DNA of 64,000 nucleotides from positions 62,001-126,000 of the forward strand of contig QPGO01000012.1 in NCBI GenBank assembly GCA_008632985.1, given 5' to 3'. Source of the stretch: Psammoneis japonica. Taxonomy: Eukaryota. Under the pieces are notes generated by a model. It was not told the origin of the DNA, did not search any database, and saw only the letters and a program-made list of their open reading frames with translations. Of the stretch, positions 53,088 through 63,753 are shown piece by piece. The translations under genes were made by a program, and so were the position numbers. The number at the start of each line of letters is the position of its first letter. The stretch's first letter is position 1.

Positions 53088-53741
53088 TTAATTCGGAAGC
53101 GAAGCCTTCTCCGCGAACCGTGAAAGTGTCGTTTCTTCTTGATTGTCACAATGATGGTTCATGAGTTCCTCCATGAGTACATTTACTTGGCGTTTTATTT
53201 CCATGCTGACCCGTCGGTATGCTCCATCACCTTCACCGTCTCTGGCACAAGCCGTGGGGGCGTCGACGTTCCATTCGCGAACCTGTTTGGATTTGTTGGC
53301 AAGCGTATGTTTGATATCATCACCACAACTACACAAAATAACCAGTTGATCAATCATGAGCGTATCCGTCGTTTGCTTTTTCGTAGATGATTCCGTCGGC
53401 TCATCTTGAAGCTTGAAGAGTACTTCGTCGATTGTCTTGGGCGCAAAGGACGAAATGTCGACACCATCCAATGCCATGGCTTGAACTGCCTTGCTCTTGA
53501 CCGTCTTGCGTTGTTTAGGTGTCGAACATGGATCGCAGCAACAAGGCTCTTCCGTAGTAGTGACGCCATTAAATACAGAGGATGAATCCAACGCGACAGA
53601 GGCAATCACAAGTTGGTCCAGCAACGCTTGGTGACGACTGTTCGTCTTGCGTTGTTCTTGACGAACCCACTCTCTCGCCCATCCTTCTGCCATTTGAGAG
53701 CGACAGCTGTTGGAGCGGCATGCAAAGATTATCAATTTCAT
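53088..53741 (-). CDS. LMW-PTP/ArsC-family protein (thioredoxin-type arsenate reductase-like)
   Basis: MKLIIFACRSNSCRSQMAEGWA (CX5R P-loop), AVQAMALDGVDIS, LVILCSC, WNVDAP. Confidence 0.8.
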   Translation of the reverse strand: MKLIIFACRSNSCRSQMAEGWAREWVRQEQRKTNSRHQALLDQLVIASVALDSSSVFNGVTTTEEPCCCDPCSTPKQRKTVKSKAVQAMALDGVDISSFAPKTIDEVLFKLQDEPTESSTKKQTTDTLMIDQLVILCSCGDDIKHTLANKSKQVREWNVDAPTACARDGEGDGAYRRVSMEIKRQVNVLMEELMNHHCDNQEETTLSRFAEKASLPN

Positions 53742-54317: not shown

Positions 54318-54467
54318 ATGACATTCAATCGACTTGAGGGCGACGGCCCTACAACCAAGCGGCTTGTGCTTTCAGCGCTTCTCTCGACGGCTCTCATTGG
54401 AAGCACGCCGACAGAAGCGTTTTCTTCACCATCCGACACTGTTTTGGCGGTTGCAACAGCATGGAAA

Positions 54468-54499
<32 letters not shown>

Positions 54500-55881
54500 T
54501 CCCAGTATGAGTCGCCTTTATTCCACAGCAGAAGAAAAAAAGGCAGAAACACGCTTGTATCGAGAGGATTTACCCGACTATGGAAAGACCTCTGTGGAGA
54601 TTGACAAGATCAAATTGGAAAAGAAGCAAAAGGCTTGGCGTCGCAAGGACTTGTACGGCACAACGTTGGTAGATCAAACCATGGCGGAACTCGAGACAGA
54701 TGCAGAGTTTCAAGAAACAGCCAAGAAACTAAAAGAAGTGGGAGCACAACAAATGTCTAAAGAAGAGCGTACAAAGCGCCGCCGAGCGCTGGATTCGTTG
54801 GGAGTTCCAGACTTTAATGTCTTTCTCAATCAAAAACTAAACAACAAGGATGAGCCTCTCGAGTTGGTACGAAAGGCACCCGAGGTCTTACAAATCAATA
54901 TTGGCCTTTATTGCAATCAGGCTTGCGCTCATTGTCACGTCGAAAGCAGTCCACTACGAACGGAAATGATGTCTGCCGAGGTGGCAGCGCAGTGCTTGAA
55001 ACTCTTGGAAAAGACCCCGTCCATCACAACGCTGGACATTACGGGCGGCGCACCGGAATTGAACGACAACTTTCGATACTTGGTCAAAATGGCACGCCAA
55101 CTTCGTCCCGACATTGACATTATTGATCGATGCAACCTGACCGTGTTGCAAGAACCGGGCCAGGAGGATCTGGTGGACTTTCTCAAGGAAAATCGCATTC
55201 ACGTCATTGCATCCCTGCCTTGCTATTCTTCCGAAAACGTCGATACGCAACGTGGCCACGGTGTCTTTGAACGATCCATTTCGGCGCTCTTGGCGCTCAA
55301 TGAGGCGGGGTACGGGACGGAGGAGAAGGGCCTGGAGCTTGATTTGGTGTACAATCCGTTGGGTGCCTTTTTGCCTCCACCGCAACAAGATTTGCAACAA
55401 AAGTACAAGGAAGTTCTTGCAGAGAACTTTGGAATCTTGTTTGATCATCTCTTTACCATGACAAACATGCCGGTGAAGCGGTTTACGGACTTTTTGTATC
55501 GTCGTGATGAGCTCAAGGATTACATGGATTTACTCGTTAGAAATTTCAACGCCGATACGACCAAGAGCCTAATGTGCCTCAACACCGTCAGTGTTGGTCA
55601 TGACGGGAAGGTACGTCTTTTTGTTTTCTGTGTTTGTGATGGTGTTTTGACTATCTTACAAAACTAGTCTTTATTTTTCGCTTGCAAAGATTTTCGACTG
55701 CGACTTTAATCAACAGCTGGGATACGGGGTTGGTGCCAATGACAAGATCCATCAAGATGGCATCACTGTGTTTGATTTGTCGTCACTTGACGACCTGGCT
55801 GCGTACGGCATTCGAAATGATAACCACTGCTTTGGCTGTACGGCAGGCATGGGCTCGAGCTGACAGGGAACCACGGCGTAG
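54318..55881 (+). CDS. arsS: ArsS-type radical SAM protein (arsenosugar-biosynthesis family), predicted selenoprotein; exons 54318-55610 and 55690-55881, UGA(Sec) at 55861-55863
   Basis: LQINIGLYCNQACAHCHVESSP (CX3CX2C), DITGGAPEL, ASLPCY, LVYNPLG, TNMPVKRF, LMC...SVGHDGK|IFDCDFNQ, HCFGCTAGMGSS-UGA-QGTTA-stop. N-terminal signal with TEAF motif. Confidence 0.88.
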
Positions 55882-55973
55882 TGAGCTGACAGAGTGTCAG
55901 TAAACACGTCGTGGTTGTATTCAGTCAAAAGAAAAAGGGCGTATCATGTTGTGTGTGGCAGCAAATGCGATAT

Positions 55974-56035
55974 GTGGAGCGAATGACTTGTCTGTTAGTG
56001 GTAATACATTCCACGTAGACAATGAGAGATTCCAC
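55974..56035 (+). promoter_or_regulatory. Eukaryotic SECIS element (type I-like)
   Basis: Helix I GTGGA/TCCAC; core ATGAC (55983-87)/TGAG (56023-26); helix II TTGTCT/AGACAA plus GTGG/CCAC; apical loop TAATACATT contains AA. Confidence 0.8.
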
Positions 56036-56793
56036 GGTCGTTGTTGCGCAACGAAGCATGCATGACGAGGAAGATGGTTAGCTGGGGCATGAAGGTGTAC
56101 AAGTAGTAGCTGTGCACATTACTCTAGATAATTGTTGAAATGAAGCAGATAATGCCAAAACACTTTTATGTAGACACCATGCACTCGATGGATTCTCGAC
56201 AAGCAATGTGCAAATGCCGGCGGAAATATCCGGTTCTGGTGCTGCCCAGTTTTCACGCCGAAAACGTTTTTGCTTGCTTTCCGTTTTCTTGGGGTTCACT
56301 CTTCCCCCCAACCATCAATGGCACAAATCAATCGATTGCACGTCGACAATGCAGCACATTTACAATGAGGTTCCAAAGTCCTCCCAATTCATGAGTCTCA
56401 GTAATGATGATGAATTCGACGACCACCGGCACTGGGCTTTCATGGACAGAGGTGCTCGCGGCGGTGTCGTCCATTCCGACAATGGTCTTTCTACAAACAC
56501 TGATGCCACTTCGCATCTTTGAGCAACAACTCTATTGATCAAGAACAACCAGAAGAGCTCGTCTAGAGTGGAACTAACAATAACCTTGAACAACCGAATC
56601 CCCAAGAGGAGAGGAGGCAGGCCATGTTGACAAATTGTAGTTCGTCTCAGATCGGTAAATCTCGAGGCACTCATTTCCTTTTTAAAAATGCCGAGACGGC
56701 ACTAAATGTGAAATGGGGCTTCTATAGCGTGGAATGGACGTTCGTGAAGAGAGGCCGATGCATACACAAAAAATCGAAACTTTTTGCATCAAG

Positions 56794-59700: not shown

Positions 59701-62700
59701 AATCGAGAGGCTCCTGGCCGGGGACGATACCAGCATCTCGACACAATGTCTCGATCTCAGATACAAGCTGCGAACGAGGTCCAGAAGGAATGATGCCCCA
59801 GCATTGCTTAAGGACCTCGTATCTGTCGCCACTGCAGTCGATTTCGCCTGTGTCAAGATCAACAATTGTGCTGTCTTCTGGGAGGTCTCGTCGTACCATT
59901 GCTGCAAGGCCATCCTGGGTTCCGTCATCGTGTATCCCACGAAAATGGCCCCAGGGAAATCTAAGCACGACATGAACGGCTGAGTAAGACGAGGAACGTA
60001 AGGAGCGCAGAGATCAAAGGGGAAAAGCAACGAGCGAAGCAGCTCGCACCCGTCCAAAACCAAGGATGGCCGCGTGGACATAATTATAACCTTAGTTGCC
60101 GCAAAGAAGATCGAAAAAAAGAGTTAGATTCGAAGTGCAAGGAAACTTTTATTGGAAACATGTCTGAATGTACCTTGCGCTCCAAAGCGAGAAACCTAGT
60201 ACTATTGTGACGATAGTCGGAACATCGAGGCACGCCATTAAGCGATGAAAAGGCAGGTCTACCAGCGGCAAATCTTTGGAAGGTGGAAACTGAAGAACCA
60301 TGGGACCGCCGGTGGAACCACTTAATGTGGGTAATGGAACAAGGATGGATGGTCCACCAGGCTTAGGCACTGGGACAGTCAGTAGCAGATGCGATATCCA
60401 CCTTTCGAGTGGCAGGTCTGATGACGACCCCGACAGTATGTGTAAATGGGAGAGAAACCTACGGAAGGCCGTCCAAAATGGATAGCGGCTTACCAAGCAA
60501 ATAGTCTTGTTTTCAAAGGTTGTCATATCGTCAAAGGCGACAAGGTTGAAACTCTCACTAATCGACGTGTCGTCATCTGTAGACGACGTGTCGGACATGG
60601 CCTTTGAAGCGTCGCTGAATCCTGCACCTTTCTTAGCTGATTCTTCATGTGTAAAACATGTGGATACGCTGGAGCTGTTTGGAGTAGATGGGGGTTGAAC
60701 ATGTCGTCGATTACGCGTTTTTCTGGCGCGTTTTTCGCAGAACCTACGATGTGGGATGGATGTGCGGCATCGTTTCTCAGACATTTTGGTCAGCTGTGCC
60801 TTCTTGGCGGATGTGAGAGGCTCCATGAAAGATACGCACGAAACTAGCAAGAAATGGAAGCACACACAGCATTGAAAGTGAGCACAAGATAAATAAACCA
60901 AACAAAAACAGACTGTACGTACCATGTATGCTATCTCCACGCTCATTCTTGACAACAAATCCGTAGTACTCTGCCAAAGGACAATCGCAAAATTGAGATC
61001 TATACAACCTGCACCCTGTTGGATAACAAAACATGGGAAGCTCCTCCTCTGGAAGGGGTAATCCCTTGTAATTCTTCAACGGGAACCGATCCAAGACGCG
61101 CGTCGCGAATGGAGCATCGGCAAACCCCAACGGGATATTCTTCCTCACCAGGACTATGGGTGTTCCCAATGGCTGAATAGGAAAGCGGCTAATGGCAGGA
61201 TCCAGCTGCGGAGCATTGTTGATTGCTTGAGGAACACCAATGGGAACACCCGTTCGTGTCCACGAAGTCTTCCCGACAATGCTGAAACCCTCATCCTCAT
61301 CGTCCTCTTCTTCTTCTTCTCTTGGTAAAACCGCACCTCCGGAATGATCAGAGAAGGTAACCGCCATTTCTGTCATGGCCGGGTCTTCGTGATATCGTTC
61401 TTCGTCCCCGACACGCTGACGACGCAGAGCGAGGGCCGGTATGTAGAGAAAGTCCTCCTCCAGATCCAAGTCATCTACTTCTGGAAGACGCTCCGGTAGC
61501 AGTTTGGGTATGTACACTTCTGGATCCAGCAAGCCATGTTCATTCTCGTGAGAGAAAAAGATGGATGGCAAATGACTATCCCGTCCTCGCCGCGGAGTAG
61601 TGGCAGTAAAGGCCGTATTCACAACAAAGGCGTTATCGTCCACATCATATGCTTCGACTCCCACTCCCGAGTCGTCACTGAATGATGCATCAGTGTATCC
61701 CAGGCCACCTAGACCGTCTCCGTGAGACAGTAGAACCGTTTTCTTTGAAACCGAATGCGCACTCAACTCATCTGGATTTGGGAATTTCAGCAACTCATAG
61801 TCACTTGGAATGGACCACTCGTCGAAACCTTTTGGCAGAGTAAGAAATTCTTGGAGTGGCAAAAACACAGCATCTGCACCAGCAGCATGCTGAAGCGGTG
61901 ACGATACTTCTTCATTAGAGTCGGGAGACGAGACTTGTTGACCGCGACTAGCAGCAGCGTCCTTTTTATCTATCGCTTCACGATATTTTTCCATAAGTTT
62001 GTAAGTGCCAGTTTCAGCGGCTCGTGCCGCTGTTGCAAAGCCGCGTTTCAGACTAGTAGCTGTGCTCGCGCTGTTATAAGTACCGCCTGACGCAACAGAA
62101 GCCCCATCGTCCGATTTCGTTTTTGATGTTTTTGTCGTGATTGGAACTGCTGCTTCACTGCTAGATGAAAAGCAAAGTGTGGATTTATGAATTCGTACAT
62201 ATCTCAGAGACAAGTCGGCCACCGCCGGACGATCCGTTTCACTTGGATTTCTTCTTCGATATCCCAAGTGAAAGCGCACCGCGTTTCGGTATTCGTGTGG
62301 CTGATCCTTGAAACGATCTTCCACGAGATGACGCAGTGTGTTTGTCATTTTCTTTCCAAGTCCTCTCAATGGAGCACTCTCAACACTATGTCTGCTTTTT
62401 GCCGATCGCTTGGAGTCATTGTCTGTCATTGAAGAAAAAGAAGCTCTCTTAGATAGTTGTCCTCGCAATCCATTAACTGGATCAAGATTGGCATCAAACA
62501 CTTGCTGTTTTGACCAAACCTCGGTGTTTCGGGTATCCGCGTCGGATGCTGACGTGGATGATATCGCCGATTCATTGACACTCGGATAACCACTCGTGGA
62601 CATGGATACAGCTGTGACAGGATCAATGTCTCCTCCTCGTGAAGCGGGACACGTGAGATGCAATATTTGAAATCCCTCCGCCTCGGCATTACTTGTGGGT

Positions 62701-63113
62701 GAAGTGACGGATGCATCTGGATTTGTTGTTGTTGTTGCGTCTGAATTGCTGGGAGAAGTCGTGGAGGAGTATCTATTGGAAGGAACTTCTATTGGAGGAG
62801 GCACAGCTGATTTTTGCGGGTGAGGTACATGCTTTGAAGATGCAACCGATGCCTGATCGTCCGCGTTTGCTGATGTTTCTGGAGTCGATGCAAAAATGGC
62901 AACGTCCACAATTTCACGATAAAATCGTTCCATAAGAGCGGCTTCGTCTTCGACAGCAACGTCTTCTTCATCTTCTTCATTTTCGTCCTTTTCTGGGCTA
63001 TCATTTGCCGGCTGACTCTCATCAACAAGAACATTCTGTTTCTGGGTGTGCTTCCAAATGAGCTCGTCGCCCACTCCCAAGATTGCGAAATAGTCAGCAA
63101 CACCGCCCGTCAT
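56794..63113 (-). CDS. DENN-domain Rab GEF with PPR-like repeats (DENND4-like); multi-exon with several apparent 1-bp frameshifts
   Basis: VADYFAILG, RFPLKNY...LPMFCYPTG, KTICLVSRYPFW, LLFPF...YVPRL, VDLDTG, TQLFQSFI, VVPDEAAYRALMVACG, PSAVTLGQY. Confidence 0.85.
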
Positions 63114-63753
63114 TGTCTAAGTATTGTCGCTTTCAGAAGAAGTGTCGAAACTAAGAATAGCTAGTGATTGTTATTGTCTGCGGTGACGACAAGATGAGTT
63201 CACAATTCACAAACAACGCCATGGCCCAATCTGAATCTGAAATCGAAAATCGAAAAAAGAGGCTCTCCAACCTCCGGGTTCCTACGCATGGTATTTTGCG
63301 CAAGATATCAGATATCCAAGATGAACCCGGAGGTGGAGTTCGATCATATATATTTATTAGGCCCTTAAGGTAATCAAATATACAACTTTCCCTCCGACAA
63401 CATTCGTGCTAGGGCCCTAAACTGAAAACGGCACCATGACGCACTTGCTGATGCACGAGTGCCCGTTGCCGCTGACTCATTCGTTGAGAAACGAGAAGGC
63501 AATCATGCATTCTCAAAGAAGACATAAAAAGAGTTGGAAATATCAACACAGAGCAGAAACGATTTGAAATTTCCACGTGTCCCTGTCGTGAATCTCGCCG
63601 CGTGTCGTTTTTTTGGAAGACGAAGTCTTTCGAAGACACAATTTGATTCTCTGTACTACTACTGAAAGGTCACCAGACGGGCTCATAATTTTCTCAATAG
63701 AGAACATTGCATTAGAATTCGATCCAGAGAAAGCAAGCAGTAGCACGTAAAGA

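Follow-up and report, generated by a model that had tools for sequence, protein, structure and literature searches.

The stretch of DNA considered here comprises 64,000 nucleotides from the diatom Psammoneis japonica (NCBI GenBank assembly GCA_008632985.1, contig QPGO01000012.1, positions 62,001 to 126,000 of the forward strand). It is referred to as the window, and all positions are counted from its first letter. On the forward strand, the window contains a two-exon gene for an ArsS-type radical S-adenosylmethionine (SAM) protein, in which a single in-frame TGA codon lies six codons ahead of a TAG stop and a hairpin follows in the 3' untranslated region (3'UTR). The gene is very probably a real eukaryotic ArsS that contains selenocysteine (Sec). 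Table 1 presents an overview of the features of the gene along with those of its neighbours.

Profile searches agree with the original prediction that this is a member of the ArsS-type radical SAM family. Exon 1 alone matches positions 3-247 of the 303 in TIGR04167 with 344.9 bits (E 3.8e-103), where the curated equivalog cutoff is 300 bits. Exon 2 takes up positions 248-302 with 50.6 bits (E 1.6e-13), in an alignment that crosses the TGA and extends to residue 61 of 63. In NCBIfam, TIGR04167 is titled 'arsenosugar biosynthesis radical SAM (seleno)protein ArsS'. The Pfam family Radical_SAM (PF04055) is found at residues 193-333 (E 2.8e-11), and the match to DUF3641 (PF12345) splits cleanly at the intron, with profile positions 1-80 at residues 352-431 of exon 1 and positions 81-134 in exon 2. 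The cysteines of the cluster motif, C199, C203 and C206, show no variation across alignments A1 and A6, and the C-terminal motif reads HCFGCTAGMGSS-TGA-QG, which fits the pattern CTAGxGSS(C/U)xG. The nearest homologues are diatom proteins (MMETSP, Cylindrotheca, Ditylum, Attheya) with identities of 75-86%.

The positions first proposed for the ATG, the TGA, the TAG and the hairpin all match the sequence. The ATG is the earliest in-frame start 3' of an upstream in-frame stop, and the reading frame is intact apart from the TGA. Exon 1 ends with the residues ...VSVGHDGK, and exon 2 translates as IFDCDFNQQ...NDNHCFGCTAGMGSS, followed by TGA, QGTTA and TAG. For comparison, a set of 80 related algal loci from metagenome contigs (L001-L080) was used. 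The intron was correctly called, since the two TIGR04167 matches abut across the splice and the orthologues are contiguous there: DGK-IFDCDF runs on ungapped in many of the orthologous loci and in proteins derived from transcripts, and the corresponding site carries an intron in L030 and L019. This comparison cites only loci where both flanking motifs were found.

Table 1. Coordinates of the ArsS gene, its associated elements and neighbouring genes in the window
Feature	Position	Strand	Content or basis
ArsS exon 1	54318..55610	+	431 codons; presequence, conserved N-terminal extension, radical SAM core, start of DUF3641
ArsS intron	55611..55689	+	79 nt, GT..AG, phase 0
ArsS exon 2	55690..55881	+	remainder of DUF3641, ...HCFGCTAGMGSS-U-QGTTA, TAG stop
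CxxxCxxC radical SAM cluster motif	54912..54935	+	CNQACAHC: C199, C203, C206
In-frame TGA, very probably read as selenocysteine	55861..55863	+	TGA/cysteine codon comparison, synonymous variation downstream
True stop TAG	55879..55881	+	Sec forms all terminate with TAA or TAG
Selenocysteine insertion sequence (SECIS) element in 3'UTR	55969..56041	+	match to orthologue-trained covariance model; covariation
Putative bipartite plastid presequence	54318..54419	+	hydrophobic residues 16-28, then TEA|F (A34|F35)
Low-molecular-weight (LMW) phosphatase/ArsC-like open reading frame	53088-53741	-	divergent; begins with the ATG at 53741, with 577 bp to the start codon of ArsS
uDENN + DENN domain gene	60149-63116	-	two long open reading frames, probably one spliced gene; unrelated to ArsS

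Whether the TGA encodes an amino acid can be judged from the codons that orthologues carry at the same position. The motif C..C..G.GSS is present in 68 of the 80 loci, and the codon after GSS is TGA in 32 of them, TGC in 28 and TGT in 8, counts that come from mutually related loci and do not represent independent events. TAA and TAG, either of which would have told against the original prediction, occur at this codon in none of the 68. With 32 TGA and 36 cysteine (Cys) codons, the TGA therefore stands at a Cys/Sec position, as had been claimed. Beyond the TGA, the peptide reads Q-G-(T/A/V)-T-(A/...) across the loci, two of which read TGATA, and the underlying codons differ mainly at their third positions (CAG/CAA, GGA/GGG/GGT/GGC, ACC/ACA/ACG and GCG/GCT/GCA/GCC). 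Such synonymous variation implies that the sequence after the TGA is translated and that coding selection acts on the tail peptide.

The final stop codon sets the two forms apart as well. All 33 Sec forms, the window included, terminate with TAA or TAG and none with TGA, whereas 12 of the 36 Cys forms use TGA (Fisher p 1.8e-4, a value that treats related loci as independent and is thus overstated). It looks like the Sec forms avoid a second UGA just downstream of the Sec codon, as far as these sequences indicate. Public gene models bear out the expectation that gene callers would truncate the protein. Among the best 120 protein homologues, 73 terminate exactly at ...GSS, 42 read into the intron after ...DGK so that the last exon is absent, and 5 continue as ...GSSCQG(T/A/S)T... 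Both Sec and Cys are found within diatom-like sequences: the record from Cylindrotheca closterium ends at GSS, and that from C. fusiformis continues with Cys.

Decoding of UGA as Sec in eukaryotes calls on a SECIS element, for which the canonical SECISearch pattern is ATGA...AA...GA. The 5' end of the hairpin in the window lies 93 nt downstream of the TAG. Helix I pairs positions 55974-55979 with 56030-56035 (6 pairs) and is followed by the SECIS quartet, with ATGA at 55983-55986 and GA at 56024-56025. Helix II consists of 8 pairs (55988-55995/56015-56022) and, past a 2-nt bulge, 4 pairs (55998-56001/56011-56014), and it is capped by an apical loop of 9 nt with AA at 56003-56004. The hairpin as originally described is thus retained with regard to the ATGA/GA quartet, the two helices and the spacing of about 95 nt; its apical AA, placed 16 nt from the ATGA, is less canonical than was claimed.

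Orthologous loci provide the stronger part of the case for this hairpin, which is judged to exceed chance from their comparison and not from folding stability. In a simple scan of 3' regions for hairpins with ATGA and GA, 25 of 33 Sec forms had a candidate, as did 5 of 36 Cys forms; four of those five are one identical GC-rich site that lies over 550 nt downstream. Two blocks recur in the diatom-type candidates, G.GAATGACT on the 5' side and GATGA on the 3' side. A covariance model (R1) was built from nine orthologue hairpins (alignment A3) with the window excluded and a 10-pair structure supplied by hand. Alignment A3 derives from a 13-hairpin MAFFT alignment (A2) after removal of L017, L018, L022 and L032, whose 3' arms were misaligned. 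RNAalifold by itself recovered just 5 of the helix II pairs.

When both strands of the window (128 kb) were searched, the top match of R1 was 55969-56041 with 19.7 bits and E 0.0038, a modest and rough value; all other matches had E-values of at least 0.44. R1 also finds Sec loci on which it was not trained, namely L004 (2.7e-5), L017 (5.9e-5), L018 (0.071), L032 and L033 (0.23) and L012 (0.24). Its matches in Cys-form loci amount to two, both on the minus strand (E 0.33 and 0.64). In a 14-sequence alignment (A5), which was fitted to the very structure under test, 89.8% of cells are paired compared with 64.7% in shuffles, and none of 500 shuffles reaches the observed value. Changes on both sides are seen in 9 of the 10 pairs and in both helices, and controls with slid partners give 36-60%. 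By the R1 matches and the covariation across 14 sequences, a SECIS-type hairpin is conserved among orthologues.

Taken with the alignment of Cys and Sec at one codon and the coding conservation past the UGA, the covarying ATGA/GA hairpin is the reason for holding the TGA to be a Sec codon. In the mechanism envisaged, the ribosome would decode UGA 55861-55863 of a nuclear diatom ArsS messenger RNA as selenocysteine, and a kink-turn SECIS about 100 nt into the 3'UTR would recruit SBP2, eEFSec and Sec-tRNA. The protein would then terminate as ...CTAGMGSS-U-QGTTA at the TAG. Judging by its family, the [4Fe-4S] cluster bound by CxxxCxxC would cleave SAM, and the 5'-deoxyadenosyl group would be attached to dimethylarsenite to form 5'-deoxy-5'-dimethylarsinoyladenosine (DDMAA) in the first committed step of arsenosugar synthesis. 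Sec-tRNA and selenoproteins are known to occur in diatoms (PMC2375036), and radical SAM adenosylation of dimethylarsenite to DDMAA is the chemistry described for ArsS (PMC13598754; bioRxiv 10.1101/2024.02.01.577332).

Several observations weigh against this account. The unpaired AA of the hairpin, at 16 nt from the ATGA, is at the long end of the orthologue range, and a lone bulged A occurs at +11. The usual distance in a canonical SECIS is about 10-13 nt, and orthologues with a visible unpaired AA have it at 9-16 nt, mostly 9-14; in a few others, the first AA falls inside helix II or far downstream. The stability of the hairpin is unexceptional (z -1.51): among 200 shuffles, 17 fold at least as well. 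The Rfam SECIS families (release 15) gave no match within 55700-56500 at E<=10, the output being weak snoRNA-like noise; the same models also found nothing in the 20 Sec-form orthologous loci that were searched (from L002-L038; thresholds across the Rfam searches were E<=5-10), and the Rfam result is uninformative for that reason. No tRNA genes occur within the 64-kb window, and a tblastn search with the ArsC-like open reading frame upstream of ArsS returned no match in the 80 loci with their 2.5-kb flanks. The modest E-value of R1, the fitting of alignment A5 to the tested structure and the relatedness of the loci belong on the same side. Lastly, homology and motifs are the basis for assigning a function in arsenosugar synthesis, a role to the Sec and a location in the plastid.

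The location of the protein is the part of the proposal for which an alternative is most viable. The N-terminus may plausibly be a diatom bipartite plastid presequence, in line with the motifs it contains. The rule for such presequences is an ASAFAP-type motif with F or W at +1, and the window protein has its hydrophobic maximum at residue 16 ahead of the A|F site. It is rather unlikely that there is no plastid targeting and that the hydrophobic stretch serves as an endoplasmic reticulum/secretory signal or a membrane anchor. For this to be the case, one can point to the deviation of TEA|FSSP from the textbook form and to a crude regular-expression count in which F is at +1 in 20 of 36 by first match. 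Many orthologue N-termini nonetheless repeat the arrangement, with a signal-peptide-like hydrophobic stretch and then A|F or A|W, some of them near-textbook (ASAF.., SAFAP), and the green-alga-like Cys forms have long Ser/Arg/Ala-rich N-termini that read as transit-peptide-like. Nine glutamine codons (CAG repeats, 54469-54497), which the orthologue consensus does not have, follow the presequence ahead of the conserved region of the protein.

Next in strength is the possibility that the gene encodes a genuine ArsS-family selenoprotein with a different substrate in diatoms, such as another metalloid or a selenium compound. This is quite improbable given that the score exceeds the equivalog cutoff and the catalytic and C-terminal motifs are all kept, even though the function is assigned solely through an equivalog hidden Markov model trained on prokaryotes. 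Marine algae are moreover classic producers of arsenosugars, and the divergent ArsC-like gene upstream offers a hint in the same direction, a weak one as it is not conserved. In favour of a different substrate, one can cite the eukaryote-specific, conserved N-terminal extension of about 100 residues that has no family match, together with the lack of arsM or the usual transferase partners among the 14 neighbouring open reading frames.

A structural model is informative about the likely setting of the Sec residue within ArsS. A sequence search of solved structures found none for ArsS, and an AlphaFold2 model of a Cys-form diatom orthologue (P0010, from alignment A6) was used in its place. The model has a mean predicted local distance difference test (pLDDT) score of 80.8. 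Over the last three residue blocks, the score falls from 85 to 70 to 43, with the final five residues below 50, and from this drop the tail is taken to be flexible. In terms of the model, the Sec probably opens a flexible C-terminal tail directly after the invariant HCxGC motif of the C-terminal domain. There, with low confidence, its selenolate may bind the trivalent arsenic substrate or sit at or beside an auxiliary cluster. A precedent for Sec in the handling of arsenic exists in the prokaryotic arsenite methyltransferase selenoproteins on record (PMC13188914).

As modelled, the protein as a whole is most similar to the twitch/SPASM radical SAM enzymes. The top Foldseek matches in the PDB include SkfB (6efn), BlsE (7vob), CteB (5why), EpeE (8ai2), anSME (4k37) and MoaA (1tv7), with E-values of 5e-9 to 4e-6 and TMq of 0.39-0.46; SuiB is also among them. 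These enzymes resemble ArsS in combining a radical SAM core with a Cys-rich C-terminal domain, yet they differ from it in sequence, with identities of 12-18% (SkfB, BlsE, CteB, EpeE, anSME and MoaA). None of the enzymes compared is known to be a selenoprotein. The N-terminal extension of ArsS (54555-54866, residues ~80-183) is covered neither by the TIGR04167 match nor by those to Pfam. It contains the motif LPDYG..WRRKDL..MSKEER..RRRALD..GVP.F, which is common to the diatom Sec forms and the green-alga-like Cys forms, and it is predicted to be helical in the AlphaFold2 model.

Turning to the codon itself, it is very improbable that the TGA is a genuine stop, that the protein ends at ...GMGSS and that the conservation downstream reflects an untranslated regulatory element. 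The 73 public gene models out of 120 that terminate at this point and the absence of a SECIS from the Rfam output would be in keeping with a stop. A stop is difficult to reconcile with Cys at exactly the same codon in 36 homologue loci, with the five codons that follow, which vary at the third position as Q-G-T/A-T-A is kept, and with a TIGR04167 profile that aligns across the TGA. Sec forms that never end in TGA and a covarying ATGA/GA hairpin that accompanies the TGA forms likewise contradict it. A pseudogene or sequencing error that turned a Cys codon into TGA in a single genome has nothing beyond the bare TGA in its favour and is practically negligible, already contradicted by the orthologue data, given the same TGA in 32 environmental loci, its implied presence in 73 truncated homologues and the otherwise intact frame. 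A variant genetic code was also considered and rejected, since TGA is the normal stop in 5 of the 8 neighbouring long open reading frames of the window.

With Sec preferred as the meaning of the TGA, the diatom gene can be set beside related systems. It shares with bacterial ArsS (TIGR04167) the Radical_SAM and DUF3641 domains, the CxxxCxxC motif and a C-terminal CTAGxGSS(C/U)xG that holds Sec or Cys. Unlike the bacterial gene, it is nuclear and contains an intron, and its product has a presequence and, beyond the reach of the profile, a conserved N-terminal extension of about 100 residues. The signals for Sec insertion are also placed differently: the SECIS here lies in the 3'UTR about 100 nt past the stop, whereas the bacterial hairpin directly follows the UGA. 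The Cys-form algal ArsS proteins belong to the same eukaryotic clade, have the N-terminal extension (...RRRALD...) and are 49-57% identical to the diatom form; L040-L056 and other loci among them resemble green algae. They differ from the diatom form in having TGC or TGT in place of TGA and in using TGA freely as the final stop, and 31 of the 36 have no SECIS-like hairpin downstream. Compared with a canonical SECIS, the window element is alike in its helix I, its internal loop with 5' (G)AATGAC and 3' (G/A)ATGA, its helix II and its unpaired apical A's. It departs from the canonical form in being missed by Rfam and in the placement of its AA, 16 nt from the ATGA within the 9-nt loop that caps a helix II with a bulge.

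In bacteria, ArsS is already a known selenoprotein family, and what the diatom gene does is to correct the usual annotation. A list of prokaryotic selenoproteins includes TIGR04167 as 'Radical SAM domain protein' with the motif GxxU, and the 'Fe-S oxidoreductase-like (GlpC)' of the same list is a different family (PMC13188914). With respect to algae, ArsS is missing from a list of 16 selenoproteins of Thalassiosira that dates from 2007 (PMC2375036). A survey of algal selenoproteomes lists a family called 'FeSoxR (FeS oxidoreductase)', and in its main text neither 'radical' nor 'arsen' occurs (PMC7539508). The original prediction allowed that catalogues might already contain related selenoproteins of algae, and this caveat probably applies. 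Our guess is that FeSoxR is possibly the ArsS family under an older COG-style name. Searches of the open literature (selenoprotein/radical SAM/algae; arsS/arsenosugar/algae) found no relevant report of a eukaryotic Sec-form ArsS, nor any explicit statement that ArsS connects the cycles of selenium and arsenic in the sea.

The consequences for annotation are direct. Public diatom models stop six residues early and so lose the Sec/Cys residue behind the original family name, rSAM_SeCys; some of the truncated homologue records are named just 'unnamed protein product' or 'DUF3641 domain-containing protein'. Screens for selenoproteins in stramenopile genomes that depend on Rfam will under-call, as its models miss the whole tested set of diatom SECIS elements. 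In terms of physiology, a Sec residue would be placed in the enzyme with which arsenosugar synthesis in algae is thought to begin, which suggests that a major group of primary producers in the sea may need selenium for the detoxification or organification of arsenic. A modestly new angle is that the arsenosugar-committing enzyme of algae would depend on selenium in diatom-like lineages and on Cys in those that resemble green algae. A wider scheme is conceivable but doubtful. In it, the enzyme that commits arsenic to arsenosugars would be a selenoenzyme in diatoms and in several further lineages of marine algae, making arsenosugar production selenium-dependent. The Sec of the tail would capture dimethylarsenite through an As-Se bond and present it to the radical SAM site. 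Changes between Sec (diatom-like) and Cys (green-alga-like and a few diatoms) would have occurred repeatedly among lineages.

With regard to the neighbourhood of ArsS, the divergent open reading frame upstream has a P-loop of the LMW-phosphatase/ArsC type (C..NSCRSQMAEGW) along with a long insertion. It matches Pfam LMWPc with 25.4 bits and TIGR02691, arsenate reductase (thioredoxin), with 49.5 bits, far under the cutoff of 174, and its top match in the PDB is the arsenate reductase 1jl3 (E 1.6e-6). On the strength of these sequence matches, it could be an arsenate reductase that adjoins ArsS. The other 13 neighbouring open reading frames matched no arsenic-related family in Pfam. A conserved arsenic gene cluster was rejected on the grounds that the ArsC-like neighbour is absent near the 80 loci and that these 13 lack arsenic families. 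Further downstream, the window has a DENN-domain gene on the opposite strand, and this gene, together with the introns present, marks the window as eukaryotic.

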